Origin: a virus | Lineage: Duplodnaviria > Heunggongvirae > Uroviricota > Caudoviricetes | Virus record (IMG/VR): IMGVR_UViG_2563366867_000008 | Length of the DNA: 23,271 nucleotides | Reading direction: 5' to 3' (one strand) | In this document: positions 8,589-23,271 of the stretch, piece after piece | Position numbering within the stretch: the stretch's first letter is position 1 | How the letters are laid out: every line of letters begins with the position of its first letter | Program-made: the position numbers and the translations under genes | Notes under the pieces: generated by a model | Database searches by the model: none | What the model saw: the letters and a program-made list of their open reading frames with translations, nothing else | What the model was told of the DNA's origin: nothing

Positions 8589-8599
8589 TCTTTAGTCTC

Positions 8600-8680
8600 A
8601 CACCAGATACTTTGTTATCCAACGATGTTAACCACAGGAACCCAAAGTATCAAGAAATTCTGTTACTTTAGTATCAACAG
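8600..8680. promoter_or_regulatory. Right operator/divergent promoter region (OR-like)
   Basis: AGTATCAA half-sites at 8646-8653 and 8668-8675, inverted GATACTTTG at 8606-8614; lies between the cI-like start and the minus-strand early operon. Confidence 0.6.
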
Positions 8681-8699
8681 CCATGAGAGGAGAAGAAAA

Positions 8700-9356: not shown

Positions 9357-9379
9357 CCAGACACAAAACACAAAAAGAA

Positions 9380-9456
9380 ACCAAAGTATCAAAAATCACT
9401 TGCCACACCTTGATACCTTAGTTACCATAAAACAAAGTTCGTAACTGAGGTATCAT
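9380..9456. promoter_or_regulatory. Left operator/promoter region (OL/PL-like)
   Basis: AAAGTATCAA (9382-9392) and inverted TTGATACCTT (9410-9419), GGTATCA at 9449-9455, plus GTTAC...GTAAC inverted repeat; same half-site as the OR region. Confidence 0.6.
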
Positions 9457-9459
9457 CTC

Positions 9460-9876
9460 ATGATCAATAAAGCTACAACTCTTGACTGTCTCGAAGAACT
9501 GAAAAACCTCGGCAGCCTCATTACACTAATAGCAAAAGCAACACCTGATGCTACGCTCTCTAGCGATATAGAGTCATGCGCAGGACTGGCATGGGATATG
9601 ACAAATAGCATATCCAGAAAGCTATCGTCAGCAATGCTTTTACAGAACAAAAATTCTGCAATCAACAACCGTCTTCGCACCCAACGCGAAGCCTGCGGCT
9701 TAACAACCGCCGAACTCGCCAGGCTGCTCGATCTCGATGAAGAAATTATCATCCAGTGGGAGAGCGGAGAGTATGAACCAACTATCAGTATGCTTATCCC
9801 ACTGGCAAATATTCTTGGCTGCGATCCGATGTGGCTGTTAACTGGCGAAACGGCAGCAAAGGATATCTGCGCATGA
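9460..9876 (+). CDS. HTH-XRE DNA-binding protein (C-terminal HTH), first gene of the PL-side operon
   Basis: 138 aa; LTTAELARLLDLDEEIIIQWESGEYEPT HTH; occupies the position of N but has no arginine-rich motif. Confidence 0.7.
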   Translation: MINKATTLDCLEELKNLGSLITLIAKATPDATLSSDIESCAGLAWDMTNSISRKLSSAMLLQNKNSAINNRLRTQREACGLTTAELARLLDLDEEIIIQWESGEYEPTISMLIPLANILGCDPMWLLTGETAAKDICA

Positions 9877-10115
9877 AAAACTGTGATGCTTACCATATTT
9901 GTCTCATTGGTGAATTGCTTGATTTCATACAAAAAAGCACTGCGCGCAATAATAAAAATATAACATATGGTGATCTGGTAATAATTTCAGAGGATATAAA
10001 GAGCATCGCTCTTAAATTCAAGAGCGACGCGAGTATTGATGACGCTATTTACGCTTATCTTGCGAAAATAATTGACGGATCCAAAATCCAGCCTCTGGAT
10101 GAACCTCGTCAGTGA
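9873..10115 (+). CDS. Hypothetical protein coupled to the HTH gene
   Basis: 80 aa from ATG at 9873 (ATGA overlap with upstream stop); AT-rich codon usage; 3' end overlaps a convergent ORF. Confidence 0.4.
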   Translation: MKNCDAYHICLIGELLDFIQKSTARNNKNITYGDLVIISEDIKSIALKFKSDASIDDAIYAYLAKIIDGSKIQPLDEPRQ

Positions 10116-10272
10116 AAAACTCCTTTGATGAAGATGAGAACTGCTTCATAAACTTTACTTTATCTTCAGGTGAAACTACCTGACGAATTAATGCGGAGAT
10201 AGCAACTTTGTGCCAAATTAATTCTTTTTTGAGTTCTGAAATCTCTTTTTCGAGTTGCTCTGCGTTAATCAT
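10045..10272 (-). CDS. Hypothetical coiled-coil protein, own promoter, opposite to PL transcription
   Basis: 75 aa; strong RBS GGAGGA 4-5 nt upstream of ATG. Confidence 0.55.
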   Translation of the reverse strand: MINAEQLEKEISELKKELIWHKVAISALIRQVVSPEDKVKFMKQFSSSSKEFFTDEVHPEAGFWIRQLFSQDKRK

Positions 10273-10451
10273 TTATCCTCCATTGAGAGCTGAATTGAAA
10301 ATGGGGACCAACACGCGGCTACGTGTGGTCGTGCGCCGGACACGGATAAGCATCCGGTAACTGATTATCAATCATTGCGGAAACAGTCTCAATATGAAAA
10401 CACTTCTGAGACTCGCTATATAGCAGGACATATAAGTCAGCTGAGGAAGCC

Positions 10452-10817
10452 ATGAAAAAGTTCGAAAACATAACTGTTCTCCATGTTGATGACTTTGATT
10501 ATACAAACCCGGAACTTCTCCCGGAGGTTGTAAAGGCAATAGATGTTGCCGATATAGTGATTAGAGGAAAGAGAATTGTCAAAAACAGGCTCGCATGCAC
10601 TTCAGAAGCAATGACAGAAACAACCTCACAGCAAGATAATTACGAAGGCATTTGTCTGGAGCCTGATTCATTTGCGGTAAATGTTTATCATTTATTGCAT
10701 GCAACACAGGTATTACATATGTCCAGTAATCACGAAACGAAAACACTCGGCAGCGAAATTCTGAATTTTGCATGTGAGTATGCAAAAACTGCTGCCGAAA
10801 AAGAATTAGCGCAATAA
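10452..10817 (+). CDS. Hypothetical protein
   Basis: 121 aa; RBS GAGGAAG; divergent from the 10045-10272 gene across a palindrome-rich 180-bp spacer. Confidence 0.55.
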   Translation: MKKFENITVLHVDDFDYTNPELLPEVVKAIDVADIVIRGKRIVKNRLACTSEAMTETTSQQDNYEGICLEPDSFAVNVYHLLHATQVLHMSSNHETKTLGSEILNFACEYAKTAAEKELAQ

Positions 10818-10895
10818 CAACAAATATGCTCTGAACGTTTATTGCGGTTTTATCGCCGGGGATTGTTACAATCTTAATCCACAGGAGGATTTATT

Positions 10896-11009
10896 ATGAC
10901 TTTTATAAAGAATATGGCATCACACAAGACCGCCTGTCTTATTGCACAATACGGTGAAAATTACATGCATATTGCCTGCTTATTTCTGCGTAAAGCATAC
11001 GGGAAATAA
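10896..11009 (+). CDS. Small ORF (37 aa) with strong RBS
   Basis: AGGAGG 7 nt upstream of ATG; below the 60-aa cutoff of the ORF track; translated manually. Confidence 0.3.
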   Translation: MTFIKNMASHKTACLIAQYGENYMHIACLFLRKAYGK

Positions 11010-11012
11010 CAA

Positions 11013-11372
11013 ATGACACATGAACCCATTAATACATATCGTCGCCGTATAGCTGTTGCAGCACTCCATCGAATAAAACGTAAAACAGGTGGTGATCTGC
11101 TTATTGTTGACCTTCTGGATGGGAACATTACGACCATAGAAATAACAGAACAGTTTATAAACCAGTTGCTGTTGCGCTTTGAAGATATTACCCGTGGTGA
11201 ATTGGGTCGAGTGGAGGGTGAAACAGAATTCCGAACTGCATACCAGAATGCCATCGGGATTAATCAACATACTGAATACCAGGCTGAAACCGGAAAGTTA
11301 ATTATAGACAACCTTTTACAAGAGGTTATTGATTACGCGAAAGAAAAATATATCAGCGGAGGAATTAACTGA
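11013..11372 (+). CDS. Hypothetical protein
   Basis: 119-aa ORF, first of four tightly packed same-strand ORFs. Confidence 0.5.
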   Translation: MTHEPINTYRRRIAVAALHRIKRKTGGDLLIVDLLDGNITTIEITEQFINQLLLRFEDITRGELGRVEGETEFRTAYQNAIGINQHTEYQAETGKLIIDNLLQEVIDYAKEKYISGGIN

Positions 11373-11587
11373 TGGCTAATTTATCCCCTGTATCTGTTGT
11401 GCACGAAAAAGTGCAGATCGTTATGACAATTGAAAATGGCCAGGTAACAGATGTCTGCAAAGTCCGCGATGGAGAGCTGATTGCCAGCATGGATACATTC
11501 ATATGGCTGGCAGAAAGAGCGGGGTATCAGATAACAGCACCTGCTCAGGAGGAAACCAGTGACATTAACAGCAACGCGAATTCCTGA
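11372..11587 (+). CDS. Hypothetical protein
   Basis: 71 aa; RBS GGAGG; start overlaps upstream stop. Confidence 0.5.
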   Translation: MANLSPVSVVHEKVQIVMTIENGQVTDVCKVRDGELIASMDTFIWLAERAGYQITAPAQEETSDINSNANS

Positions 11588-11777
11588 GTGGGTCCACCAG
11601 CAGGCGTTGCTGGTCCTGCGGCGGTACAGATGCCGACGTATATTCCCGCATCGGATACAGCGCAACGGATATCTCAGTCTGAAGGTTAACCGTCGCTGGC
11701 GGCTGTTATCGAAAGACGACGGCCGGAACTGGGAAATAATGAGTCATGAACGTTATTCGGGAGAAATAAAGAAATGA
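11559..11777 (+). CDS. Hypothetical basic protein (GTG start)
   Basis: 72 aa; AGGAGG 6 nt upstream of GTG. Confidence 0.45.
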   Translation: MTLTATRIPEWVHQQALLVLRRYRCRRIFPHRIQRNGYLSLKVNRRWRLLSKDDGRNWEIMSHERYSGEIKK

Positions 11778-12166
11778 TCGACAACCGCACCGCCAGCGCC
11801 ATTGACCAGGCATTACAGAAACATGATACACCCGTCGGCCCGTTATTTTTTGTAACACATCACGGAAGAACAAAAAAATGCCTCACTCGAAAAACGGCAA
11901 TTCGTTACCTGGCATTCTTTATGACCACCCGCGCTTTTGAACGTTCAGGATTCCGACAACGCCATCCTGACAAGCGTTTTATCTTCAACGGGAATGAAAT
12001 ATGGAAACGTGGAGAATCAACCACAGAGTACACCCGCGCACACCAGCGAACAATCAGACGACTGCGCAGACTCATCGCCAGGAAACAGTATACAGAAAAA
12101 TGGTTCAGAAAATATGACACATGGAGCGCCGGATATTACGAACTGATGGCAACAAAACCATTCTGA
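11774..12166 (+). CDS. Hypothetical basic protein
   Basis: 130 aa; ATGA overlap with upstream gene. Confidence 0.5.
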   Translation: MIDNRTASAIDQALQKHDTPVGPLFFVTHHGRTKKCLTRKTAIRYLAFFMTTRAFERSGFRQRHPDKRFIFNGNEIWKRGESTTEYTRAHQRTIRRLRRLIARKQYTEKWFRKYDTWSAGYYELMATKPF

Positions 12167-12226
12167 CGTAAACGAAATTAACCATGACGCAATTAAATAA
12201 GGCAAGCTGAATACAGCAGGAGGACC

Positions 12227-12415
12227 ATGAACATTTATTTCAGAATAGTTATATCACTGGCAATTATCGCATGTATTTACGGATTGCTCGTCCCGTTTCT
12301 GATATCAATGAAGGATACGGTAGCGGTGATTTCTGGCTTTGCACTGACGTTTCTAACCCCGCCATGTATTTATACCATTTATAAGGGGCTTTCTTTCACT
12401 AAGGATAAAAGATGA
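12227..12415 (+). CDS. Small membrane protein (two predicted TM helices)
   Basis: 62 aa, hydrophobic; RBS AGGAGG; stop overlaps start of SPFH gene (ATGA). Confidence 0.6.
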   Translation: MNIYFRIVISLAIIACIYGLLVPFLISMKDTVAVISGFALTFLTPPCIYTIYKGLSFTKDKR

Positions 12416-13239
12416 AAAAAATTATTTTTTCTTTAGCCATTGTTCTGCCTGCCATTGGCCTTGTCGGTTGTGATCGTGTTGAGCCTGGTAATGTGGGCAT
12501 CAAAGTCAACAAACTTGGCGACGACAAAGGCGTCGGTGAAGTGGTCGGTGTTGGTCGCTACTGGACAGGCTGGAACACTGAAGTTTATATCTTCCCGACC
12601 TTTAAGCAGATGAAGACCTACGATGATCCATTCAGTTTCCAGATGAGCGATGGAACAACCATTGGTTACCACATCGGAGTAGCCTACAAGGTTGATCCAT
12701 CCAAAGTTACCACAGTCTTTCAGACCTACCGCAAAGGCGTGGACGACATTACCGACACCGACCTGCGCCAGAAGATAGCCGACGCACTCAACCGACTGGC
12801 CAGCAAAATGACCACCGACAAATTTATCGACGGCGGCAAGTCTGAGCTGCTGGATGCAGCTCTTAAAGACATTCAGGAAGAAATGACGCCCATCGGTATT
12901 CAGGTAATAAGCCTCTCATATGTGGGTAAGCCGGAGTACCCGCCTACTGTTATCGACAGCATTAATGCCAAAGTCACGGCGAACCAGAAAACTCTGCAAC
13001 GCGAGCAGGAAGTAAAACAGCGCGAAGCGGAAGCCAACATGTTGCGCGCGGAAGCTGCCGGACAGGCTGATGCGATTCGCACAAAAGCCCAGGCTGAAGC
13101 CGATGCTATTCGTTTACGCGGTGAAGCTCTGCGTCAGAACCCCGGTGTTATGGAGCTGGAAGCCATCAATAAATGGAACGGCACGCTGCCGCAATACATG
13201 ACCAGCGGTGCCAATACACCATTTATCCAGGTTAAATAA
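12412..13239 (+). CDS. SPFH/band-7 (prohibitin/stomatin-like) lipoprotein with C-terminal Ala/Glu-rich coiled coil
   Basis: 275 aa; signal peptide with lipobox LVGC; SPFH-like core; RBS AAGGA. Confidence 0.7.
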   Translation: MKKIIFSLAIVLPAIGLVGCDRVEPGNVGIKVNKLGDDKGVGEVVGVGRYWTGWNTEVYIFPTFKQMKTYDDPFSFQMSDGTTIGYHIGVAYKVDPSKVTTVFQTYRKGVDDITDTDLRQKIADALNRLASKMTTDKFIDGGKSELLDAALKDIQEEMTPIGIQVISLSYVGKPEYPPTVIDSINAKVTANQKTLQREQEVKQREAEANMLRAEAAGQADAIRTKAQAEADAIRLRGEALRQNPGVMELEAINKWNGTLPQYMTSGANTPFIQVK

Positions 13240-13310
13240 CTTAATATGCCCGGCAGGCCGTCGGGCTAAGGGAAAAGCAGATAAACACTCATAATACTCA
13301 ACCGCAAATA

Positions 13311-13652
13311 ATGAACTATGACCCAAATCTGACGTCATGCGGACGCATGGCGAAACAAACCGTTCGATTAACTTTCGGGCAATGGGAATACCGCGAAACA
13401 TTCGAAGTCACTGTCGGTGGCAACCTGACCGGACTCGATGTTATCAGTTGCGCTATTGAAAGCCTGTACGCAACGCTGCCTTATGAAGAAGTCGAGGATG
13501 AGCGTACAGGGGAAACAGATATCATGGCCACCATTAATATTGGCGAACTGACATGCCAGGATGAAGACCTGTCCGGAGAGCTCTGGCTTGCCGGGATGCT
13601 TATCTCAGCAGAAATTATCAGTATTGAACCCGCTACAAACATACGGCTCTGA
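13311..13652 (+). CDS. Hypothetical acidic protein (start uncertain, possibly 13347)
   Basis: 113-aa ORF, no recognised domain. Confidence 0.4.
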   Translation: MNYDPNLTSCGRMAKQTVRLTFGQWEYRETFEVTVGGNLTGLDVISCAIESLYATLPYEEVEDERTGETDIMATINIGELTCQDEDLSGELWLAGMLISAEIISIEPATNIRL

Positions 13653-13683
13653 AGTTCTCACTATTCAGAGAGCAGGAGAAAAA

Positions 13684-13926
13684 ATGTTCGCTTTGATTAA
13701 TCAGGGACAACTGTATACCGACAGTGCCGGTTACCCGGTAATAATTATTCGCTGCATAAACAACACTGTGTTGTACAGAAGAATTGATGGGCGAACACAG
13801 TCAGTAAAAATAAACGATTTCAATGAACTGTTTGAACGGATTGATCACCAGGAATACCGACAAATTCTGGCAGAAACAGAGCAGGAGGCTCATCTGAAAA
13901 AATTACGGGCCATGAAAAGGAAGTAA
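13684..13926 (+). CDS. Hypothetical protein
   Basis: 80 aa from internal ATG with RBS AGGAG; longer ORF from 13561 less likely. Confidence 0.45.
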   Translation: MFALINQGQLYTDSAGYPVIIIRCINNTVLYRRIDGRTQSVKINDFNELFERIDHQEYRQILAETEQEAHLKKLRAMKRK

Positions 13927-13929
13927 AGA

Positions 13930-14076
13930 ATGAATAAAGCGTTTGAGCTATGGGTGCGCCAGCGTTACGGCAATCGCTATGACCTGACGCGAGATGTTGA
14001 CGGCTTCTACTGTCGTGAAATTGTGAAACGAATGTTTGAAGTGTGGTGCCACTGCCGTGGGCTGAGTGTTGTGTGA
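13930..14076 (+). CDS. Small Cys-containing protein (48 aa)
   Basis: RBS AAGGAAG; manually translated; immediately precedes putative xis. Confidence 0.35.
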   Translation: MNKAFELWVRQRYGNRYDLTRDVDGFYCREIVKRMFEVWCHCRGLSVV

Positions 14077-14084
14077 GGTAATAC

Positions 14085-14321
14085 ATGGGCAATGTGATTC
14101 AACTGGCTCCCAATGAATGGGTTTGTGAAAGCGTTCTTATCGCAATTACCGGGCTCAAACCAGGCACAATTCTTCGGGCCCGGAAAGAATGCTGGATGGT
14201 TGGAAGAGAGTATATTCACGTATCACCAGACGGTAATCCAAAGCCTTCCAGTGAATGTATGTATAACAGAAAAGCAATAGATGCCTGGGTCGCCTCAATG
14301 AAAAACAAACAACCCAGGTGA
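14085..14321 (+). CDS. Putative excisionase
   Basis: 78 aa directly upstream of integrase in the same orientation; assignment is positional, sequence not confidently matched to a family. Confidence 0.45.
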   Translation: MGNVIQLAPNEWVCESVLIAITGLKPGTILRARKECWMVGREYIHVSPDGNPKPSSECMYNRKAIDAWVASMKNKQPR

Positions 14322-14376
14322 TTTAATATCATGAAATATGTAAGCTCGTATCGCTCTTGGGCGTCTGGAGGTATCG

Positions 14377-15690
14377 ATGGATAAAGTCAAATATCCAACA
14401 GGCGTCGAAAACCACGGCGGCACATTACGCATCTGGTTTAATTTTAAAGGTAAACGTGTCAGGGAAAATCTTGGTGTCCCTGACACTGCCAAGAACAGGA
14501 AGATCGCCGGGGAACTGCGGACATCAGTATGTTTTGCCATCCGCACAGGAAGCTTTGATTATGCTGCACAGTTCCCTGACTCCCCCAACCTTCAGGCTTT
14601 TGGGGTAAGTAAAAAAGAAATTACGGTGAAGGAACTTGAAGAAAAGTGGCTGGATCTGAAACGAATGGAAATCTCTGCAAATGCATTCAATCGCTATGAA
14701 TCCGTTGCAAGAACGATGGTTCCGAAAATTGGAGGCAGTAAACTGGTGTCATCGGTAACCAAAGAGGAATTGCTGTATATCAGGAAAGATTTGCTGACCG
14801 GGTATCAGAATTCAACGAAAAACAAAGCAGCAGCAAAAGGACGGAGCGTCGTTACTGTAAATTATTACATGACGACAATCGCTGGAATGTTTCAGTTTGC
14901 TGCAGATCACGGTTACTTAGAAGCAAATCCCTTCCAGGGAATTAAGCCTCTTAAAAGAGCCAGGGCAGAGCCAGATCCGCTAACTCGTGACGAATTTATT
15001 CGCCTGATAGATGCTTGCCGACATCAGCAGACGAAAAACCTGTGGTCATTGGCTGTGTACACAGGAATGCGTCACGGTGAACTGGTCTCCCTGGCCTGGG
15101 AAGATATCGATCTGAAGGCAGGAACAATTACCATCAGGCGCAATTATACGAAACTTGGTGAGTTCACTCTACCGAAAACTGAAGCAAGCACAAACAGGGT
15201 TGTGCACCTTATCCAGCCCGCTATCAGTGTCCTGAAAAATCAGGCTGAAATGACAAGACTGGGTAAGCAGTACAACATCAAGGTGCAACTACGTGAATAT
15301 GGACGTTCAGTGAACCATGAATGTACTTTCGTGTTTAACCCTCAAGTGGTTAGAAAAAGCGAACAGGTAGGTTTTGTCTACAAAGTCGATTCTGTAGGTG
15401 ACTCATGGGAAACAGCCATTAAGCGTGCAGGGATCAGGCATCGAAAGGCATACCAGTCACGACACACTTATGCGTGCTGGTCATTATCTGCCGGAGCAAA
15501 CCCAAGCTTCATTGCCAGCCAGATGGGCCATGCAAGTGCCCAGATGGTATTCAATGTATACGGAGCATGGATGACTGACAGCAATGCAGAACAGATCGCA
15601 ATGCTGAATCAGAAGCTGACAGATTATGTCCCAATGATGCCCCATAGTCACCAAAGTGACACCAGAGGCTTATTAAAATCAGTAAGTTAA
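14377..15690 (+). CDS. Tyrosine integrase (lambda Int family)
   Basis: 437 aa; RBS GGAGG; C-terminal catalytic region with R...HxxR...Y-type residues (RHTYACWSLSAGANPSFIASQMGHASAQMVFNVY); abuts disrupted host gene. Confidence 0.85.
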   Translation: MDKVKYPTGVENHGGTLRIWFNFKGKRVRENLGVPDTAKNRKIAGELRTSVCFAIRTGSFDYAAQFPDSPNLQAFGVSKKEITVKELEEKWLDLKRMEISANAFNRYESVARTMVPKIGGSKLVSSVTKEELLYIRKDLLTGYQNSTKNKAAAKGRSVVTVNYYMTTIAGMFQFAADHGYLEANPFQGIKPLKRARAEPDPLTRDEFIRLIDACRHQQTKNLWSLAVYTGMRHGELVSLAWEDIDLKAGTITIRRNYTKLGEFTLPKTEASTNRVVHLIQPAISVLKNQAEMTRLGKQYNIKVQLREYGRSVNHECTFVFNPQVVRKSEQVGFVYKVDSVGDSWETAIKRAGIRHRKAYQSRHTYACWSLSAGANPSFIASQMGHASAQMVFNVYGAWMTDSNAEQIAMLNQKLTDYVPMMPHSHQSDTRGLLKSVS

Positions 15691-15716
15691 TCCTTAATAC
15701 CCGTCATGTTAACTGC

Positions 15717-16118
15717 GTGGAGGGTAACACCACGCTTTATGCCCTGCCGAAACCCGAGGTTGTCCTGCGCTGGCGTGAGCAGACCACAGATGACTTCCGC
15801 TTCTGTTTTAAGTTTCCGGCGACCATTTCGCATCAGGCAGCATTACGGCATTGCGATGATTTAGTGACTGAATTTTTGACCCGCATGTCACCGTTGGCTC
15901 CGCGCATTGGACAATACTGGCTGCAACTGCCTGCCACATTCGGCCCACGGGAGCTGCCTGCGCTTTGGCATTTTCTCGATTCTCTTCCCGGTGAATTTAA
16001 TTATGGGGTGGAAGTCCGCCATCCACAGTTTTTCGCCAAAGGGGAAGAGGAACAAACGCTTAATCGCGGTTTACATCAGCGCGGCGTTAATCGGGTGATT
16101 TTTATTAGACACGTTTAA
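15717..16118 (+). pseudogene. Internal fragment of a DUF72-family (yecE-like) host gene, cut on both sides
   Basis: 133-aa frame with no proper start; EVRH-containing DUF72-like motifs; frame ends 5 codons after a sharp GC drop at ~16100; recognition of yecE is from memory. Confidence 0.45.
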
Positions 16119-16168
16119 ATACACCATCTAAAACGATACAATCTAGGGCATCAGTTTTGAGGTGAACA

Positions 16169-17692
16169 ATGAAACGTGCCATTTCTTACATCAGGTTTTC
16201 ATCTGAGAAGCAATCCCGAGGTGATTCATTACGCCGACAGTCTAAGATGGTTAATGACTGGCTTAAGGCTCATCCTGAGTACTACCTTGACCAAGATTTA
16301 TCTTTTCGTGATTTGGGGGTGAGTGGGTTCACTGGTAAGCACTTGAAAGGTGGCTTAGGTGACTTTTTAACCGCTATCGAGAAAGGGCTTGTTAAAGCTG
16401 GTGATACGCTCTTGATAGAATCTCTTGACCGTCTGTCACGTCAAGATGTAGACCAAGCAAGTGAGCTACTCAGAAACATTCTTCGCTCTGGTGTAGATGT
16501 GGTCACCTTGTCCGATGGTGAACATTACACAAAGGAAAGCTTAAAAGACCCGTTAGCTCTGATTAAAAGCATTTTGATAATGCAGCGGTCGCATGAGGAG
16601 AGTTTGCGTAAATCTGAACGTATCCAAGCTGCATGGGATGCAAAGAAAGAAGCTGCTAAAGCCGGTATCAAGATTTATAAGCGTTGTCCTGCATGGCTTA
16701 AGCTTAATGATGACCGTAAGACCTTCTCTGTGATACCTGAGAAGGTAGAAACTGTGAAGAGGTGCTTTCAATTACGGTTAGAGGGTAAGTCTATTTGGGA
16801 GATTGTCAGGACTCTTAATGATGAAGGTCACCAGACACTTAACCAGTACAAAGCAGGTAAGTTTGGTCAAACCTCAGTGCAAGACCTTCTGAAAAATCGC
16901 TCTGTAATTGGTTACTTCACACCTAAAGGCTGTGAGGAGATAGCTGGTTATTTCCCCCCTATCATCCCTGAGACTGATTTCTACAAAGTCCAGCAACTAT
17001 CATATTCTCGTTATGGAAGAAAGCCTGCTTCAGATAAACCATTGAGTGTGAATCTTTTCAAAGGTGTTATCCGTTGTTCTGAATGTGGTCATGCTTTGAT
17101 TATCACAGGCTTTAGCGATACAAGAAACGGGATTTATCGTTGTCCTCTTCGTAATGAAAACCGTTGTAGTGCTAAAGGACTTTCACGTAAGCAAACCGAT
17201 GGTACATTGCTTGCCCTGCTATCCCGTATAGACCGATTTGATAGCGATATGACGAATACCATAGACACACTGAAGCTACACCGTGAACACATCTCAAGCA
17301 ATATTGAAAAGCTGGTACAGCTATCACTTGAAATTGAAGACTTGTCCGCTATTACCAGCAAACTAAAACAGTTAAAAGGTGAGCTATCACAGGTTGATGC
17401 GGATATCGAGAAGGAGACACAACGCCTTAAATCTATTGATGTTGGTTGTTTGTCTGATTGTGACTTGACTACAAAGGCGGGAAGGATTGAAGCACAACTG
17501 ATAATCAAAAGTGCTGTTAAAGAGGTCATTTTAAATACTGCTAAACGTCGCTGTAAAGTAACTTTTCACAATAGTAAGTCAATCACCCTACCAATAACAG
17601 AAACCCCCTCAGAGGACGTTACAGAGGCTATACAGTCGCTTTCTGAAGTCACTGAGAGGGGGTTGATAGATGTTGATGAGGTTATCATATAG
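16169..17692 (+). CDS. Large serine recombinase (serine integrase)
   Basis: 507 aa; N-terminal resolvase catalytic motif AISYIRFSSEKQ...RQ, recombinase domain, Cys-rich zinc ribbon (CSECGH...YRCP...RC), C-terminal coiled coil; RBS GAGGTGA; candidate -10 TACAAT upstream. Confidence 0.85.
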   Translation: MKRAISYIRFSSEKQSRGDSLRRQSKMVNDWLKAHPEYYLDQDLSFRDLGVSGFTGKHLKGGLGDFLTAIEKGLVKAGDTLLIESLDRLSRQDVDQASELLRNILRSGVDVVTLSDGEHYTKESLKDPLALIKSILIMQRSHEESLRKSERIQAAWDAKKEAAKAGIKIYKRCPAWLKLNDDRKTFSVIPEKVETVKRCFQLRLEGKSIWEIVRTLNDEGHQTLNQYKAGKFGQTSVQDLLKNRSVIGYFTPKGCEEIAGYFPPIIPETDFYKVQQLSYSRYGRKPASDKPLSVNLFKGVIRCSECGHALIITGFSDTRNGIYRCPLRNENRCSAKGLSRKQTDGTLLALLSRIDRFDSDMTNTIDTLKLHREHISSNIEKLVQLSLEIEDLSAITSKLKQLKGELSQVDADIEKETQRLKSIDVGCLSDCDLTTKAGRIEAQLIIKSAVKEVILNTAKRRCKVTFHNSKSITLPITETPSEDVTEAIQSLSEVTERGLIDVDEVII

Positions 17693-17706
17693 TTGAGATT
17701 CTATCG

Positions 17707-18480
17707 TCAGAATCGCTTGTTAGGATTCACAGAAAATTTCTTCAAAGTACTACCTGTACCAGCATTATTAAGCACCTTTGAAGCTTGCGCATTAGCGGCA
17801 TCTGAGAAGGTGCTTTTTCCATTCTCAACTTTGACACTTTTACCACAATTGATACGGGCTTGAAGTTGCTCATTAGTGAGTTCACTCGTAGAGCGATTAT
17901 ATAGCTCCTGACACAGCAACATACCATTACCTAGACTTGTCGTAGTGTTACCAGTGTTCTTCTTAGAAGTTGCACCACCATCATTCGTGGTAGCAGTCTT
18001 TCCAGTTGCAGCAGAAATATCAGTCTGACCAACAATAGCTTTGAAGTTAATTTCCTGAAAAGTTAGCTGGATTCTTAGACCGTTTGAAATCCCCACATCT
18101 TTAGAGGCTTTAAAACTCGTAATAATGGAATCGTCAATTTTAATTCCGTCTTTACAGATGACCGAAATAATCTGTTTCTGGTCACGCCAGCTTTCAAGAG
18201 TGTCGATGAAGTTTTCTACTAATTGACCCTGACGAGTTAATAATAAGCTTCCTTCATAGCCAACTACAACGACACCACTAATAGTGATTGTTCTGGGTGC
18301 TCTTTGCACATTATCTGTAACGGTTTGTCCTGATTGCATGTTCTGTGTAGTCACCTGCATAGGACTATCAAATTCCATGTTTTCAGTTGCTGATAAGGTT
18401 AAGAAGGCATCTACATTATCTCTTAAGTGGAAATAGATGCCGTCTTTGCCACTATATTTGATTTGGTTAGAGTAAATCAT
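17707..18480 (-). CDS. Hypothetical protein with Thr/Gly-rich linker (possible tail-associated protein)
   Basis: 257 aa from internal ATG with RBS AAAGGGGA (ORF extends to 18501); follows the tape-measure-like gene; no domain recognised. Confidence 0.5.
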
Positions 18481-18555
18481 TAAATTCCCCTTTGATTTCA
18501 AAGGCTTAGTGTATTTTAATCATTTTTAACCAAGCCTTTGATATATAAGTGTTTT

Positions 18556-18626
18556 CTCTGTTAAGCGTGTTGTACGTAAATTCTATTTTTCAGTGTGGGT
18601 ATTAGCTTTACAGATTTCACGTAGCA
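18556..18626 (-). promoter_or_regulatory. Conserved cis-element, copy B (upstream of 264-aa gene)
   Basis: Blocks CTCTGTTAAGCGTG / TACGTAAA / GTGGGTAT / AGATTTCACGTAGCA shared with copy A at 20702-20772. Confidence 0.6.
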
Positions 18627-18637
18627 TTCGACTATTA

Positions 18638-20686
18638 TCAATCATCTTCTGGGAATGATGAACTTAATAGCGTAGCTTCTGCGTATTGGTCGTAGATATT
18701 ACTGCTAAAGGTCATAAAGCTGGTTTCATCTGGTTTAATGGCAACTTCACCACCAAGTGAAACTTTCACAGGCTCCTGAATACGTTTGCTCAAAGCACTA
18801 ATTTCATCTCTCAGGCTTTGGATATCCGTATTCGTTAATGCCGCATCTTGTCTCATGGTGATTAATTCTGGATGCTGGAAGTTAGCAAGATTCATAGCTG
18901 CACTATTAAACCAACCTTTCACATCGTCCATAGTAAATACTGGCTTAAGTCCAGATTCTTTAGCTAACTCTGGTAATTTAGCTTGTGCTTCCATTCGTTC
19001 AGGTGTAGAGGCTAGTCTTTCATAACCTGCATAGAGAGCGCTACCAGCTAATAGCATATTCCCAAGATTCAGTCTTGATGGTTTCCCATTCTTTCTATTC
19101 ACGTTATCCGCTGTAGTATCAGCAACCTGACCTAATCTTGTGATAGCAGTCATAAGCCCGTAAATACTTCTGGTTACACCAACAACTTTATTTACAGCAA
19201 TAACACCAGCCAAGACTTTTAAACTATTAATCAAGCCAGAACCTAAAGCATCAACAACTTTCTTTTGTTCATCGGTTAAACCACGATAAGCTAATGTCAC
19301 CTCATCAAAGAACGCTCGCACCTTGTAACTAATATCGGCCAGACTATCGACACCATGTGACATATCAGTCATCAAGCTACCAAGAGATTCACCAAGACTT
19401 TTACCACTTCCACCAAGAGCGTTTAAAAGCGTTGTTAAGCTTCTTGTAAAATCTTGCAGACCACTTTCAGAACCTCTGAAGATACTATCAAGCGTGGTAT
19501 TCCAAGAGTTTTTCAGGTTCCCTAATTGTGCCTGTGTACTTTCTGAAATAGCTTTCCAGCCACCTTTAGCGGTGATTTGTCTATTCAGTTCCTGAGTGAC
19601 CTTCTGAAGAGTATCGGCAGATTTTAAAGCCCCCTTCTTCATGGCATCAAATAATTCCTGTTCAGTCTTTCCGGTTGCTTTAGCGAATACCTGAACCATA
19701 CCAGGAACAGCTTCAGCTAGTTGCCCCTTAAGCTCTTCAGCCATAACCTGACCCTTACCAGCCATCTGTGATAATGCTGTCAGTGCTCGCTTAATCTCTT
19801 CTTCACTTCGACCCATCAGACGAGAATAGCCAATCATACTTCTAAAAAGTTCTTCAGAACCTTGAATACCCATAGACTCTTTAGCTGAAGCACCGAAACC
19901 AGCAAACTGTGATTGCAGTTCAGCGATATCTAAACCCGTTGTTTGAGCTAATGACTTTGTGAACTCTTTTACCTGACCTGCATCTTTATCAAATACGAAA
20001 TCAATTGAACGTTCAGCACTTGCACGCTGTAAACCAATTTCCATTACTCGCTGATAAGCTGCCAAAGCACTTTGAAAAGTGTAAATAGCCGTACCCGCTT
20101 TAATTGCACTTGAAGCTAGTACATCTAAACCATTTGAAGCATTTTCACTGTGATTATTTTTGCTGGTGGTCTTGTTAAACTTAGAAAGTGTTTCACGTAG
20201 ATTTTGATTTAACTTTGCTAACTCACGATTAAAAGCTTCGTTTCCAAGTGTCTTGGATTTACTACTTAATGCGTAAAACTGACTCTTAATGTATTTCTCG
20301 ACAATTGGGTTAAGACCTTTCAGCTTAGACATATTCGCTGAATAAGCCGCTGTGATTGCTCTGTTGCCGCTAATTCGTGGCTGTCTTGGCTGTCTAAGTG
20401 GCTTTAAAGTATCCTCAATTTCCGTTTTAATCTTAAACGCTCTAGTGTTTTTAAGACGCTGCTCAATCTTGTCAAAGGTCTTATTAAACTTCCTTTCAAG
20501 TTGCCCTAAAGAACTTGTCAGATTGCTGTCAAGTTGCTTGGTATCGACCTTAAACGCTCTATTCAAATTACGTTCAATTCTTTGTGCTGACTGCAAAGCT
20601 GCCTTTTCAACTCTTTGCAAGCCCTTAATAACGTTCTCGCTGAAGCCTAGCTCAACGATAAAACTATCAACTTTAAATTGTGCCAT
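18638..20686 (-). CDS. Phage tail tape-measure-like protein
   Basis: 682 aa, largely alpha-helical/coiled-coil; central LSQMAGKGQVMAEELKGQLAEAVPGMVQVFAKATGKTEQELFDAMKKGAL segment matches the tape-measure core motif as I remember it. Confidence 0.65.
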   Translation of the reverse strand: MAQFKVDSFIVELGFSENVIKGLQRVEKAALQSAQRIERNLNRAFKVDTKQLDSNLTSSLGQLERKFNKTFDKIEQRLKNTRAFKIKTEIEDTLKPLRQPRQPRISGNRAITAAYSANMSKLKGLNPIVEKYIKSQFYALSSKSKTLGNEAFNRELAKLNQNLRETLSKFNKTTSKNNHSENASNGLDVLASSAIKAGTAIYTFQSALAAYQRVMEIGLQRASAERSIDFVFDKDAGQVKEFTKSLAQTTGLDIAELQSQFAGFGASAKESMGIQGSEELFRSMIGYSRLMGRSEEEIKRALTALSQMAGKGQVMAEELKGQLAEAVPGMVQVFAKATGKTEQELFDAMKKGALKSADTLQKVTQELNRQITAKGGWKAISESTQAQLGNLKNSWNTTLDSIFRGSESGLQDFTRSLTTLLNALGGSGKSLGESLGSLMTDMSHGVDSLADISYKVRAFFDEVTLAYRGLTDEQKKVVDALGSGLINSLKVLAGVIAVNKVVGVTRSIYGLMTAITRLGQVADTTADNVNRKNGKPSRLNLGNMLLAGSALYAGYERLASTPERMEAQAKLPELAKESGLKPVFTMDDVKGWFNSAAMNLANFQHPELITMRQDAALTNTDIQSLRDEISALSKRIQEPVKVSLGGEVAIKPDETSFMTFSSNIYDQYAEATLLSSSFPEDD

Positions 20687-20701
20687 TGTTCATATTTCAC
20701 C

Positions 20702-20772
20702 TCTGTTAAGCGTGAGCTACGTAAAAAATAATTTTTGGTGGGTATATCTGTTCAGAAGATTTCACGTAGCAC
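20702..20772 (-). promoter_or_regulatory. Conserved cis-element, copy A (upstream of tape-measure-like gene)
   Basis: Same block order as copy B; ends 15 nt from the ATG; contains inverted repeat GCTACGT...ACGTAGC. Confidence 0.6.
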
Positions 20773-20779
20773 ACATACA

Positions 20780-20821
20780 AAAAAGGGAGAAACTACCGAA
20801 TAATATCGATAATCTCTCCCC
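20780..20821 (-). terminator. Rho-independent terminator after the 69-aa gene
   Basis: Minus strand: GGGAGA...TCTCCC stem followed by TTTTTT. Confidence 0.6.
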
Positions 20822-20869
20822 GTGTTATAGATTCGATAGAACCTATCTCATACACCCAACCAATCTTTT

Positions 20870-21079
20870 TTAATGCCTGACAAGATAATGTAGTTCCGTT
20901 TCACCTATAATTTGAGCATCGGAAGGGATACGGTCGATACACCACTTTGGAATCTTGCGTGTTTTTGGTTTGCGTGAGGTGATAATTTGATGTTTGGTTT
21001 TAATTCTTAAGGCTGGCTTAGTTTGTAACTTTAAGTTTTCACAAACAGACCGAATAGTCTCTAAACGTTCTTCAAACAT
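20870..21079 (-). CDS. Small basic protein
   Basis: 69 aa; RBS GAGGTG; Lys/Arg-rich. Confidence 0.5.
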   Translation of the reverse strand: MFEERLETIRSVCENLKLQTKPALRIKTKHQIITSRKPKTRKIPKWCIDRIPSDAQIIGETELHYLVRH

Positions 21080-21102
21080 TAATCACCTCTTTTAATTCAT
21101 AA

Positions 21103-21810
21103 TCAAAGTGCTTTGCTGTATTTCTGAGAAATCTTCGTTAACTGCTCAATATCAGCCTGCATAGCAACCTTCTTCTGCGTTTCATAGTCACTAATAATCG
21201 CTTTCATGCTATCAAGTTCTTTTTTAAGCTTTTGCTTTAACTTATCCAGTTTACCGGAATAATGCTTAGTCAAATTAGCTTCAGCTAACTGAAGAATCTC
21301 TTCATCTGTTTTATCAGTCGTCAAAATAAATTGACCAGAACCCCTTAATGCTTGTCTGACATCAATTAACCGGAACCCTTCAGGGATACTTTGAAGAACT
21401 TTAGGAACGTCTTCAATCGCTGTACCAAAACCATCATTAAAGTTTCCTTCATAATAGATAAACGGGTTTGACTTAATCTCGTAAGCAATATCATATTCTG
21501 AAGGTTTCGAGGTTTCTTCGAAGTTCTTAACCGCATCGTAAGCAATATCAAGTTTAATTCTTTGTGCTTTCAGTAGTGGGTAATATTCACGCTCAAGCTC
21601 AAGTAATGATTCAGTTTTGCATACATCAGGCATCTCTTGAGGTTCAGGAGTCACAAAGATGATTTCCTTTGGTGACATCTTTAACTCTTGCTCAAGTGCA
21701 ATTCTTTCATCGTGCTCTTTGCGCTGAATAGCGATAGCTGGATGTTCAGTCTGTGGTGACCAGTCACCGAAGCTATCAATCTTTTTACCGTTAATATATA
21801 GATTTTCCAT
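21103..21810 (-). CDS. Acidic hypothetical protein with C-terminal coiled coil
   Basis: 235 aa from internal ATG with RBS GAGGAAAA (ORF extends to 21855). Confidence 0.5.
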   Translation of the reverse strand: MENLYINGKKIDSFGDWSPQTEHPAIAIQRKEHDERIALEQELKMSPKEIIFVTPEPQEMPDVCKTESLLELEREYYPLLKAQRIKLDIAYDAVKNFEETSKPSEYDIAYEIKSNPFIYYEGNFNDGFGTAIEDVPKVLQSIPEGFRLIDVRQALRGSGQFILTTDKTDEEILQLAEANLTKHYSGKLDKLKQKLKKELDSMKAIISDYETQKKVAMQADIEQLTKISQKYSKAL

Positions 21811-22063
21811 TTCATTTTCCTCTTCTAAGTAATATTCAGTTTTTAAAAAGCACACCTGACAGCCTATCTAAACTTAGAAGAGACTTAAAAGGCGGTTTGC
21901 CAAGTATGCTTTTTAAAAGCTGAAAAAGCCCTAAACATAGGTGATTCGGATATTCATGGAATCATCCTTATCTGTGAAGGGCTTTGGAGGTTTGCTTTAT
22001 AACGTTAACGAAGTTTCAGGAAAAACTTTCTTTAAAAGTTCTGTTTAAAAACTCTTAAAGAAA

Positions 22064-22083
22064 GCCCTAATCATGATTAGGGC
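22064..22083. promoter_or_regulatory. Perfect 20-bp palindrome GCCCTAATCATGATTAGGGC (operator-like)
   Basis: Exact palindrome; related half-sites AAAGCCCT at 21925-21932, AGGGCTTT at 21979-21986 and CCCTAA/TTAGGG at 22757-22778. Confidence 0.6.
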
Positions 22084-22216
22084 AAAGCTGTAAAGGGTTC
22101 AATGAATGAATGATTAAGCACTTTTCGAGATGACCTCTCAGGTTATATAAGAGGCCATGTAGCGAAAAGCATTGCACCTTTCAGAATAACTATCCCTAGA
22201 TGTAGATGGAATTGTT

Positions 22217-22243
22217 GAAAGAAATAAGAGAGCAATTCTCTCT
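22217..22243 (-). terminator. Putative terminator after the 101-aa/25-aa operon
   Basis: Minus strand: AGAGAG-aattg-CTCTCT stem followed by TATTTCTTTC. Confidence 0.45.
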
Positions 22244-22305
22244 ATAATTAAAATTATGTCATGCTTAAGGTTATTTGTCAACAGCTTTTTAACAGATTGG
22301 TAACA

Positions 22306-22383
22306 TTAATTCTTATTTACCGTATTACCTACCCAGCAACCAACAAATAGCCCTAAAACCGTCCAGAGAATAACGAGTGTCAT
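22306..22383 (-). CDS. 25-aa hydrophobic peptide (MTLVILWTVLGLFVGCWVGNTVNKN)
   Basis: Manually translated; GAGGTG 5 nt upstream; start overlaps stop of the 101-aa gene; single predicted TM helix. Confidence 0.4.
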   Translation of the reverse strand: MTLVILWTVLGLFVGCWVGNTVNKN

Positions 22384-22688
22384 TACATCACCTCACTGTA
22401 AGGGTTTAATTCATTCTGATAGGTCAAGAATACATTCAGCTTCAATAATTGCTCCGGGCTTAAATCAAGTCGGTTGCATTCGCTTGTGATAAATCTCTTG
22501 TAGTCTGGGTCTGTTACTTCCAGTTTATGAACAAAGTCACCAAGTTTAATTTCGTTGATTATATGCTTGTCAATATACGTTGACGCTTCAAAACAATGCA
22601 TGAAATAGATATTAAAGCCCGACCTGTTCAGGTCATTAAGCCAATTCATAGTTTCTTGGTCAACCATAACTTGCATTGAATAATTCAT
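22383..22688 (-). CDS. Hypothetical protein
   Basis: 101 aa; RBS AGGAAGGA; no domain recognised. Confidence 0.5.
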   Translation of the reverse strand: MNYSMQVMVDQETMNWLNDLNRSGFNIYFMHCFEASTYIDKHIINEIKLGDFVHKLEVTDPDYKRFITSECNRLDLSPEQLLKLNVFLTYQNELNPYSEVM

Positions 22689-22834
22689 TTTTAAAATCCT
22701 TCCTGTATCGCATTCTAAGACGTTTTAACCCCTTTTTTAGACCACTTAAGGCGATTCCCTAAGTTACCCTGATTAGGGGCTTAAAATCGCTTAGAATTCG
22801 TCTGGTAAAGCCTGAGAGATATGTTTTACTGTTT

Positions 22835-23050
22835 TTAGCTCAAGTCTGAGACTAATAGCCCCATCTGGTGACCGTAGTCTTTTAACCAGCTTTGCTTAAC
22901 CGGAGCCTTCAGAGAATAGTTAGGGGCTGACAAGTGAAGATAGATATCATCTTTGCCGTGGATGCTTCCCCATCCTTCGTATAACTCAAGCAAGTTTTCA
23001 AAATAACGAAATGCTTTATTAGTCTGAAGTTGTACTGTGATAGTTTTCAT
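22835..23050 (-). CDS. Hypothetical protein, second gene of an overlapping pair
   Basis: 71 aa from ATG at 23050 preceded by GGGGTG; start overlaps upstream stop by 1 nt. Confidence 0.4.
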   Translation of the reverse strand: MKTITVQLQTNKAFRYFENLLELYEGWGSIHGKDDIYLHLSAPNYSLKAPVKQSWLKDYGHQMGLLVSDLS

Positions 23051-23271
23051 CAAGCACCCCATTCAGAAATAAGCTTAATTCCCTGCTCAAGCTGTTCAGG
23101 GTCGTTATAGTCGAGTATTACCAGTGGCTTTAATTCGTGTTTAAGCTGGTGGATTTGAGAGGGTTTTAATCGTTTGTTTGCTTTGAGGGTCACATCTTCA
23201 AATTCAGCATCTGCTAAATTCTGTCTGATTAGGTGGCTGCCAAGTGTGGAATATTGGAACCTGTAACACAT
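23050..23271 (-). CDS. Hypothetical protein, first gene of the pair; 5' end may lie beyond the window
   Basis: 73-aa ORF reaching the window edge. Confidence 0.35.
   Translation of the reverse strand: MCYRFQYSTLGSHLIRQNLADAEFEDVTLKANKRLKPSQIHQLKHELKPLVILDYNDPEQLEQGIKLISEWGA

Follow-up and report, generated by a model that had tools for sequence, protein, structure and literature searches.

Two copies of a non-coding cassette of about 70 bp, each standing 5′ of a phage-derived tail gene, are most likely regulated promoters, judging from their sequence; the fuller reading, in which the module is a portable, factor-dependent and island-specific promoter/operator for the two genes, is about an even call. 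The genes encode a tape measure protein (TMP) and a Dit-like tail protein, and they belong to a satellite-like island of about 11 kb, not to a phage. In the window, by which is meant the whole stretch of 23,271 nucleotides analysed, the genes and the parts of the cassette are as follows.

18638 to 20686, minus strand: TMP gene, 682 aa, matching Pfam TMP_3 and PHROG tape measure families.
17707 to 18480, minus strand: gene for the Dit-like tail protein, 257 aa from the ATG at 18480, matching Pfam Dit_like.
18556 to 18626, minus strand: cassette copy A (repeat family D2), directly 3′ of the TMP stop codon and 75 nt 5′ of the Dit-like ATG.
18617 to 18624, minus strand: upstream ACGT-core box CTACGTGA of copy A, alignment columns 7–14 being invariant or at least 90% conserved.
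18580 to 18585, minus strand: −10-like hexamer TAGAAT of copy A; T46, A47 and T51 are invariant and columns 48–50 variable over 51 variants.
18572 to 18579, minus strand: downstream ACGT-core box TTACGTAC of copy A, overlapping the predicted transcription start; ACGTA (columns 54–58) is invariant.
18556 to 18569, minus strand: 3′ block CACGCTTAACAGAG of copy A, part of the most conserved 25-nt stretch of the TMP-to-Dit region.
20701 to 20771, minus strand: cassette copy B (repeat family D2), with a terminator-like hairpin on one side and the TMP ribosome-binding site on the other.
20762 to 20769, minus strand: upstream ACGT-core box CTACGTGA of copy B, seen in the sequence.
20725 to 20730, minus strand: −10-like hexamer TATTTT of copy B, in the same register as TAGAAT of copy A.
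20717 to 20724, minus strand: downstream ACGT-core box TTACGTAG of copy B, seen in the sequence.
20701 to 20714, minus strand: 3′ block CACGCTTAACAGAG of copy B, its final bases merging into the TMP Shine-Dalgarno sequence GAGGTG.

That a module of this size is duplicated here had been claimed in the original prediction, and the repeat with its ordered exact blocks is real, though its second copy occupies 20701–20771 and not 20702–20772. A repeat search of the window pairs it with 18556–18626 at 73% identity, ungapped; the blocks CTCTGTTAAGCGTG, TACGTAAA, GTGGGTAT and AGATTTCACGTAGCA are common to both copies, exactly and in the same order, and exact occurrences of the two end blocks are limited, in the window, to these two places. 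Read in the sense direction (minus strand) the cassette runs TGCTACGTGA...CACGCTTAACAGAG. Could the likeness be fortuitous? Chance similarity is excluded since the whole cassette is kept in hundreds of other genomes, and the further copies that had been proposed as a search object, found in related elements, mean that this is no one-off local duplication. Each copy does precede a gene start, as had been stated, both genes being on the minus strand; the second of them, put at 264 aa, is shorter, as homology with the phage protein makes the ATG listed above its most likely start. The co-ordinate control also put forward for the two genes is an inference.

Over 51 distinct variants of the cassette the invariant elements are CTACGTGA, T[T/C]ACGTA, a TAnnnT lying 2 bp 5′ of the second box, and GCTTAA. 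The hexamer takes the forms TATTTT, TAGAAT, TAGATT, TAGTTT and TAATTT, its middle three positions being free, and with only about six independent hexamer variants the statistical weight of the TAnnnT signature is limited. The TAGAAT to which attention had been drawn is present, but in the 18556–18626 copy (reading 18585 to 18580) and not in the other, which has TATTTT (20730 to 20725). Mean pairwise identity in the 3′ part of the cassette is 0.93 against 0.47–0.67 in the adjoining TMP coding sequence, and the non-coding cassette, at 0.76–0.93, is better conserved than that coding sequence; the most variable part of the alignment is the stretch where a −35 would sit. The inverted repeats CTACGTGA ... 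T[T/C]ACGTAG bracket the core in every variant, so the internal inverted repeat of the earlier account is genuine, with only 7–8 bp of it kept across variants. Even the most divergent member, from Citrobacter, retains the boxes, TAGATT and GCTTAACA. A small ORF in the cassette is not conserved, its reading frames differing between copies.

With a start at about 18573–18575 in copy A, the upstream box CTACGTGA would be centred at about −47, to be followed by a variable stretch with no conserved −35, then an A-tract, and after it the putative −10 hexamer TAnnnT. The second, inverted ACGT-core box, T[T/C]ACGTAG, would span the predicted starts at about 18573–18575 and 20718–20720, and what would be the first transcribed block, CACGCTTAAC, almost invariant, would lead into the ribosome-binding site. 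TAnnnT is also present on the opposite strand of the A/T-rich quasi-palindromic core, so the orientation assigned rests on gene context.

The absence of a clean −35 from the module, already remarked on from the letters, holds up: a promoter consensus scan (threshold at least 9 of 12 matches) finds no site inside either copy, and for a TTGACA-like hexamer 16–18 bp upstream of the −10 the best candidate by eye is TGAACA in copy B (18-nt spacer, 4/6), with none credible in copy A. Lacking a −35, the promoter should be weak alone, and the suggestion of an activator- or alternative-factor-dependent promoter, like that of a repressor-controlled one, is compatible with the in-register invariant TAnnnT of the 51 variants and the want of a usable −35. 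The match of the cassette to the sigma-70 consensus is weak, under the scan threshold, and counts against the promoter reading; other operons of the island have perfect TTGACA-17 promoters, unlike the cassette. One such operon, and the hairpin that ends it, lie just upstream of copy B.

22253 to 22281, minus strand: sigma-70 promoter-like site, TTGACA-17-CATAAT with TG, of the operon with genes 21103–21855 and 20870–21079; the island L128 has an equivalent.
20784 to 20821, minus strand: terminator-like hairpin and T-run, a 16-pair stem then TTTTTTG, closing the upstream operon just before copy B and kept in related islands.

With a strong terminator-like hairpin directly before copy B, a new start is needed there. 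Neither copy itself contains an intrinsic terminator in the scan, the second box being followed by GCTCACG and no T's. The sigma-54 sequence TGGCA-N6-7-TGC(A/T) at −24/−12 is absent from the cassette, as is a T4-type late promoter TATAAATA at −10; sigma-32, sigma-28, sigma-E, MotA-box, boxA/nut and T7-like promoters were rejected by eye, their likeness being superficial and their spacing wrong.

How might such a promoter be switched? A sequence-specific DNA-binding protein would act on both boxes, either as an activator at the upstream box or as a repressor clamping the −10/start region through the two of them. The island has a conserved tandem ribbon-helix-helix (RHH) protein, its gene lying outside the window, that is a candidate for this part, and another is a helper-phage protein. 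Further proteins that might bind the boxes are one of 141 aa with an HTH at its C-terminus and a basic one of 69 aa whose gene stands directly 5′ of copy B. The best structural match of the RHH protein is TraY; its gene lies several kb from the cassette, with a promoter region of its own that is without boxes. ACGT boxes are not enriched in other intergenic regions of the island, and the search there made no link to a regulator.

The late promoters of P2, 186 and the satellite P4, served by Ogr, B and Delta, are activator-dependent, with a TGT-N12-ACA dyad at about −55. Like them the cassette has a −10 with no usable −35 and an upstream symmetric element, and one cassette is repeated before several morphogenetic units, in a helper-satellite setting for the timing of structural genes. 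However, neither the copies nor their flanks contain the TGT-N12-ACA dyad, a pair of ACGT-core boxes brackets the −10/start region, the putative first transcribed block is conserved, and scans of the island proteins recognise none of Ogr/Delta type. P1 late promoters (Lpa-dependent) and Mu middle/late promoters (Mor/C) have TAnnnT, no −35 and a symmetric element that recruits a phage-encoded activator; the shared TAnnnT −10, missing −35 and conserved symmetric element are a lead only, as sequences and the positions of the symmetric elements differ, and no Lpa, Mor or C homologue is found among island proteins with Pfam and NCBIfam. RHH-controlled promoters include Pant of P22 (Arc/Mnt), PY of the F plasmid (TraY) and those with omega repressor heptads. 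The cassette resembles these in its short subsites of 5–8 bp, direct or inverted, overlapping or flanking the candidate promoter, whereas its boxes are 45 bp apart and not adjacent.

The cassette was found in 449 of 5426 complete E. coli genomes, at a median of two places per genome (range 1–5, none on plasmids), and also in Shigella, Citrobacter, IMG/VR and gut metagenome contigs. Viral sequences were scanned with a 17-mer, a preceding scan with a 14-mer having been swamped by chance matches; a protein scan of genome contigs gave only 3 loci. Throughout the genome survey the cassette is always intergenic, and it is confined to one island family, at three fixed gene-relative positions. The position before the Dit-like gene (that of copy A) is occupied in all 61 islands examined, that before the TMP gene (copy B) in 32 of 64, and so is optional; that half of the islands have TMP without the cassette counts against the promoter reading. 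The same sequence variants occur at either position, depending on the island, which suggests that the A and B positions would be functionally interchangeable. Beyond the window, at the opposite end of the island, stands a third copy, in reverse orientation. It has TAACTT or TAATAT in the same register, including in islands without the upstream box; its core is inverted relative to the 3′ block, and that block is degenerate there. Neither the satellite-like chromosomal island, nor the optional nature of the TMP-side copy, nor this opposite copy had been noticed at the outset.

Among the alternatives the one that fares best, though it is improbable, is an RNA element that would act in cis from the 5′ leader or the intercistronic region: a hairpin from the inverted repeat, and CACGCUUAACAGAG near the Shine-Dalgarno sequence, would govern processing, stability or translation of the TMP and Dit messages; an RNase III/E site and a site bound by a protein or sRNA are among the possible kinds. 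The region around copy A is probably already transcribed from upstream, the copy beginning 12 nt past the TMP stop with no terminator between, and action at the RNA level is thereby possible. The 3′ block adjoins the ribosome-binding site, copy B folds at −17.3 kcal/mol (z = −2.4), a single stem pair alternates between G-C and G-U, and 3′ of copy A the same leader has a hairpin of greater significance.

18490 to 18549, minus strand: stable leader hairpin between copy A and the Dit-like ribosome-binding site; inverted repeat I24, −17.7 kcal/mol, z = −4.15.

However, copy A folds no better than its shuffles (z = −1.07), and covariation, which the shared 5′ leader entertained in the original prediction would lead one to look for, is absent from the stem: 81.4% of cells are paired against 81.2% in shuffles, 206 of 500 shuffles reaching the observed value, and no compensatory signals rise above controls. 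In RNAalifold just 7 pairs survive, around a loop of 37 nt (−4.4 kcal/mol), and 0 of them are compensated; the outer repeat arms vary independently of each other, and for this region Rfam gives no match, whether gathering thresholds or E ≤ 10 are applied. In the third copy the core is turned round with respect to the 3′ block, which a leader RNA would not tolerate. T7 RNase III sites are intercistronic processing hairpins, and an imperfect palindrome of about 70 nt between genes of a phage-type operon does recall them, unlike the lack of covariation, the weak consensus fold and the conservation of sequence rather than of pairing.

A little less probable again is a reading in which the palindromic module serves recombination or mobility, being either targeted by or left over from site-specific or short-homology recombination, or else a miniature inverted-repeat-like element; it would have spread to three places in the island, with regulation secondary. 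The presence/absence polymorphism at the TMP site is clean (32 with, 32 without), symmetry in some copies extends to 13–20 nt or more (TTAACGGTGTT-CTACGTGA ... TCACGTAG-CTCACGCTTAA), between the same boxes the core of the third copy runs the other way, a palindromic insertion of 24–27 nt is found in both orientations, segments are shuffled between copies as a mosaic, and in some islands a small serine recombinase gene adjoins the third copy. Against such mobility are the limitation to one island family, to at most 5 places per genome and to the same three gene-relative positions, and the absence of target-site duplication when filled and empty sites are compared. That recombinase is missing from most islands and its gene is preceded by GAGAC repeats of its own, while the strong column-specific conservation (0.93 in the 3′ part) argues for a sequence-specific function. 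All 69 distinct variants at the A and B sites have one orientation, and all third-site copies the other; no locus shows orientation polymorphism among 93 A/B-site and 15 third-copy instances. A box spacing of 45 bp is too short for intramolecular synapsis, which also counts against recombination.

Invertible promoters with flanking inverted repeats, such as fimS and the Mpi-controlled promoters of Bacteroides, offer a related comparison. Here too inverted repeats bracket a promoter-like core, one copy has its core reversed, and some islands have a small serine invertase-like gene with a weak match to the Mpi family; unlike in those systems, the core is only about 45 bp, orientation does not vary, and the invertase is missing from most islands. 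An active inverton was rejected on the uniform orientation, the 45-bp size and the unrelated GAGAC repeats of the recombinase. So, by reading, was an integron attC-like site, GTTAAGC...GCTTAAC fitting the degenerate core though in the wrong order and with the left partner missing in most copies.

Is the cassette instead something brought along from the phage? Felix O1-like phages are the source of the tail genes, and the cassette is absent there. Blastn against 50,697 phage records gave no match; in the complete garuso genome its sub-motifs are as frequent as expected by chance and lie in coding regions, neither ATACCCAC nor TTACGTAG occurring there, and these same results led to rejection of a copied helper-phage promoter. 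No spacer separates the TMP gene from the Dit-like gene in the phage. A helper-phage relic is nonetheless conceivable, if distinctly unlikely: the final codons of the tape-measure chaperone gene would have come in with TMP and given rise to the 3′ third, which would later have been duplicated before the Dit-like gene and kept only as a translation-initiation region. In the copy-A variant the 3′-terminal 28 nt are similar to phage DNA directly 5′ of the TMP ATG, with a local score of 12–14 against 8 ± 1.3 in shuffles (4–35 of 2000 shuffles reach that score), BLAST alignments to Felixounavirus extend about 24 nt 5′ of the ATG, into the 3′ block, and islands without copy B retain the phage-like ACTTAAGAGGTG. 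However, similarity of the cassette to phage is no longer significant once the last 12 nt are taken away, and in the copy-B variant it is not significant in any case; boxes, A-tract and hexamer are without phage counterpart. The 3′ block is better conserved as non-coding island DNA than the neighbouring coding sequence, and it also stands at the Dit site and, degenerate, at the third site, both of which are without a TMP start.

A DNA site for packaging or replication, for instance a binding region for terminase or initiator, is the least credible alternative. TCACG motifs are repeated, inverted and direct, beside an A-tract in the cassette, an IHF-consensus-like TATCAAAGGCTTG can be picked out by eye 3′ of copy A, and a replication initiator is encoded in the island. 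Against this, every one of the three copies stands at a gene start, one of the two here is optional, iteron arrays are lacking, and the presumed helper phage type, whose terminase would have to recognise the cassette, has no counterpart of it.

To return to the regulated promoter, the reading most likely on the evidence above: without its island the cassette would be an ordinary kind of element, a promoter/operator. Besides a replication initiator the island carries an integrase gene convergent with the tail genes.

16169 to 17692, plus strand: large serine integrase gene; Pfam Resolvase, Recombinase and Zn_ribbon_recom, PHROG integrase.

In scans with Pfam, PHROG and NCBIfam profiles, only the integrase, replication initiator, Dam, TMP and Dit were recognised, and most small island proteins had no family match; the sole PADLOC hit was the integrase, which matched LmuB marginally (E 1.3e-4, 18.8 bits). 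Both tail proteins are composite. Only about 45 N-terminal and about 10 C-terminal residues of the TMP are close to the TMP of phage garuso, identity overall being 27%. Residues 6–187 of the Dit-like protein are about 99% identical to garuso gp119 while its C-terminus has diverged, and 17923–18466 has 94% nucleotide identity to Felixounavirus. If the cassette is a regulated promoter, it gives an experimental handle on an island that places phage-compatible yet diverged TMP and Dit-like proteins under separate control.

Felix O1-like phages are virulent and widely used in typing and biocontrol. A tentative and rather doubtful extension of the promoter reading is that the cassette is the switch of a family, previously undescribed, of satellites, or of anti-phage islands resembling satellites, which live in E. 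coli, Shigella and Citrobacter and parasitise these phages. The three factor-dependent promoter copies would be silent when the island is integrated and fire together on infection; they would drive the chimeric TMP and the chimeric Dit-like protein, each keeping only phage-compatible interface segments, and from the third copy transcription would cross the attachment junction of the excised circle to reach the serine integrase gene. A literature search found no report of a Felix O1-like phage satellite or of a relevant Felix O1-type late promoter. According to one recent preprint, satellites do not otherwise carry tape measure genes (PMC12822802). Identification of the trigger of the cassette would tell whether tail assembly is hijacked by the island or sabotaged, and would also yield a compact, portable, infection-responsive promoter. 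The island, apparently undescribed so far, is present in about 9% of complete E. coli genomes, i.e., about 1 in 11.

A 71-nt sequence, the cassette, is present twice in the window, the repeat search giving 73% identity without gaps, and on reading the two copies the exact blocks common to them keep their order, with the terminal ones, AGATTTCACGTAGCA and CTCTGTTAAGCGTG, having exact occurrences in the window only there. The pair of ordered-block copies in the original prediction is real, though its second interval was one base off (20701-20771, not 20702-20772), and each copy does precede a gene start, copy B that of the tape measure protein (TMP) and copy A that of a Dit-like tail protein.

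17707-18480, minus strand: Dit-like tail protein gene, from its most likely start, ATG 18480
18556-18626, minus strand: cassette copy A
18638-20686, minus strand: TMP gene, 682 aa
20701-20771, minus strand: cassette copy B
14377-15690: tyrosine integrase of the neighbouring prophage end

In the sense direction both copies are laid out as TGCTACGTGA ... CACGCTTAACAGAG and end just 5' of a gene; the TMP Shine-Dalgarno sequence directly continues copy B, and copy A is 75 nt upstream of the Dit-like ATG.

What carries these genes? They are no part of a phage. A separate element is entered at 16169, and 16169-23271 is the left part of a satellite-like island that runs past the window end. The island, of about 11 kb, was detected in 486 of 5426 complete E. 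coli genomes. Its chromosomal insertion sites number at least three (yecE, ymdF/wrbA and yciI/tonB), and there are full copies at 10670-21573 in locus L001 and about 4400-16600 in locus L128. Its genes are, in order, those for a Dam methylase, a replication initiator, several small unknown proteins and 236-250-aa and 69-aa proteins, then a terminator, TMP, Dit-like and a convergent large serine integrase; TMP and Dit-like are its only structural genes. PADLOC gave no meaningful match to a defence system, literature searches found neither a described satellite of Felix O1-like phages nor a paper on the island, and TMP genes are, according to a recent preprint (PMC12822802), otherwise absent from satellites. 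The main interest of the cassette is as the probable control point of this undescribed, common island with its chimeric tail genes. Adjoining the island, at 1-16118, is a lambdoid prophage end, of which 1-15690 is the early/immunity/integrase part, with replication genes (O-like, DnaC-like and DnaB-like), Ant/Rha-type regulators, a CI-like repressor, three tRNA genes (Arg, Arg, Met) and matches to STnc100, C4 antisense RNA and isrK. As a 133-aa ORF at 15717-16118 matches no more than the initial portion of a 278-position PHROG profile, that gene may be interrupted by the island insertion.

Searching databases for further copies, a check suggested with the original prediction, did yield them. 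With copy A as blastn query, matches are in 449 of the 5426 complete E. coli genomes, at 703 places (median two per genome), none of them on a plasmid or under an annotated feature; pattern scans of IMG/VR and metagenomes and a protein-anchored scan of species-representative genomes add over 100 instances, including ones from Shigella and Citrobacter. The site upstream of Dit-like has the cassette in 61 of 61 loci and that upstream of TMP has it in 32 and not in 32, counts that are biased as most loci were retrieved via the cassette itself, though loci found independently of it agree. Boundaries at the TMP site are clean, there is no target duplication on comparing filled and empty sites, and both window variants are seen at either position in other islands. 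In Shigella flexneri (L003 15880-16010) and in L046 the end of an insertion sequence meets the cassette right at the 5' boundary of TAGAAT, and upstream box and core are gone.

All islands have a third copy, outside the window and near the opposite island end, examples being the following.

L214 9839-9911: third copy, oppositely oriented
L174 about 10425-10500: third copy, oppositely oriented
L160 10455-10551: third copy, oppositely oriented
L128 4954-4990: third copy, oppositely oriented

It has the identical arrangement of hexamer, box and block in reversed direction, its constant half, toward the island end, being TAACTT or TAATAT, TC, ACGTAG and GAAATCGTTAAG. One type retains the whole core together with the upstream box, plus a strong mirror image of the 3' block; in other types, different sequence or the gene of a small serine recombinase takes the place of the upstream half. 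From these types, the unit common to the three loci is the hexamer, start-region box and initial block, with the upstream box frequent but dispensable. Both orientations were not seen at any one locus, and an active invertible switch was rejected on that ground. Four GAGAC repeats precede the small resolvase/invertase-like serine recombinase gene of some islands (L128 5040-5194), and are possibly the enzyme's own binding or crossover sites. Speculatively, transcription from the third copy would cross the attachment junction and, in an excised circle, enter the serine integrase gene.

In a gap-free alignment of 51 distinct 70-nt variants, the invariant or nearly invariant parts are the upstream box CTACGTGA, an A-tract, T-A-n-n-n-T followed by T, the downstream box (C/T)ACGTA, which is the inverted partner of the upstream one, and C-A-C-G-C-T-T-A-A. 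The hexamer occurs as TATTTT, TAGAAT, TAGATT, TAGTTT and TAATTT, with bases 1, 2 and 6 fixed and the middle ones free, a distribution typical of a -10 element. Where a -35 element would be expected is the cassette's most variable part, and no sigma-70 promoter is found within it at scan level; perfect TTGACA-17-TAnnnT promoters are present in other island operons, e.g., at 22281-22253. Across a 770-nt region of 80 distinct TMP-to-Dit segments, mean pairwise identity is 0.47-0.67 over the 3' part of the TMP coding sequence; in the cassette it is 0.76-0.78 for the first two thirds and 0.93, the regional maximum, for the remainder. In the Citrobacter member, which diverges most, both boxes, TAGATT and GCTTAACA are retained, but the ATACCCAC motif is missing. 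Some copies at the TMP site (L130 9706-9790, L132, L197, L216) and third site (L214, L237) have, directly beside one ACGT box, a 24-27-nt insertion with the palindrome GGATAAGAATTATCC, seen in both orientations and following that of the cassette core.

The best-supported reading is that the cassette would be a portable promoter/operator, in which two ACGT-core boxes, inverted relative to each other and centred near -47 and -2, enclose a -10 element without a -35, and the conserved block downstream, the first to be transcribed, meets the ribosome-binding site; the transcription start, factor dependence and factor identity are what we infer. Copy B directly follows a strong terminator-like hairpin, and so a fresh start would be needed for TMP, while copy A would uncouple Dit-like from TMP, genes that in the phage are fused head-to-tail. 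Comparative evidence supports the promoters of the original prediction in part, short of proof. In how it would work, the cassette is closest to activator-dependent late promoters such as those of P2/186/P4, P1 or Mu, or to RHH-controlled promoters, though the sequence features that define the P2/P4, T4-late and sigma-54 classes are absent.

Could it instead act as RNA, as a leader or processing element? This is possible, and copy A is probably co-transcribed with TMP, yet structural support is missing. The 18-pair inverted-repeat stem is 81% paired across variants, but every covariation measure equals the column-shuffle control (206 of 500 shuffles reach the observed value) and the two sides of the outer stem vary independently. 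RNAalifold gives seven invariant pairs around a 37-nt loop at -4.4 kcal/mol with 0 compensated pairs, the folding of copy A shows no advantage over shuffles (z = -1.07) and that of copy B some advantage (z = -2.4), and there is no Rfam match to the cassette. Conservation is in the box sequences and not in their pairing, and the 5' leader offered as an option in the original prediction is not borne out, covariation analysis giving no signal above shuffles. A recombination or mobility element would account for the presence/absence polymorphism, the symmetry that some copies extend further, the inversion of the core and the shuffling of segments as a mosaic, while leaving unexplained the fixed gene-relative positions, the column-specific conservation and the missing orientation polymorphism.

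Is the cassette purely a phage relic? By sequence comparison, Felix O1-like phages (Ounavirinae) are the source of the tail genes. The Dit-like protein is about 99% identical to gp119 of one such phage, garuso, over residues 6-187, with the C-terminal 70 aa diverged; TMP, 53 residues shorter than that of garuso and 27% identical to it overall, retains of it only about 45 residues at the N-terminus and about 10 at the C-terminus. Relative to these phages both proteins are chimeras, a make-up that suggests they are built to plug into, redirect or poison helper tail assembly. The phage TMP and Dit-like genes abut with zero spacer, which makes the intergenic cassette a feature of the island; blastn found no match among 50,697 phage records, and in the complete garuso genome its sub-motifs are no more frequent than chance predicts and lie inside coding regions. 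There is a modest likeness between the final 28 nt of the copy-A variant and the phage DNA directly 5' of the TMP start, where a chaperone gene ends (4-35 of 2000 shuffles reach the score); it is gone once the last 12 nt are removed. Captured phage sequence may therefore be the origin of the 3' block, but not of the boxes and hexamer, and a relic would account for the last 12-28 nt at most. With three copies, all close to genes, and no phage counterpart, the cassette is unlikely to be a packaging or replication site.

Two observations concern translation. The Shine-Dalgarno GAGGTG is better spaced for a six-codon mini-ORF (20673-20693, minus strand; ATG 20693, MNNGTI, stop), which runs across the TMP start (20686) in another frame, than for TMP. 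The Dit-like leader, from copy A to the ribosome-binding site, contains a stable 13-bp hairpin (18490-18549, minus strand; -17.7 kcal/mol, z = -4.15), whose variants have single, mostly wobble-compatible changes; UCAAAGG in the Shine-Dalgarno region could be an alternative pairing partner for the hairpin's 3' arm (CCUUUGA), and so the hairpin may control translation.
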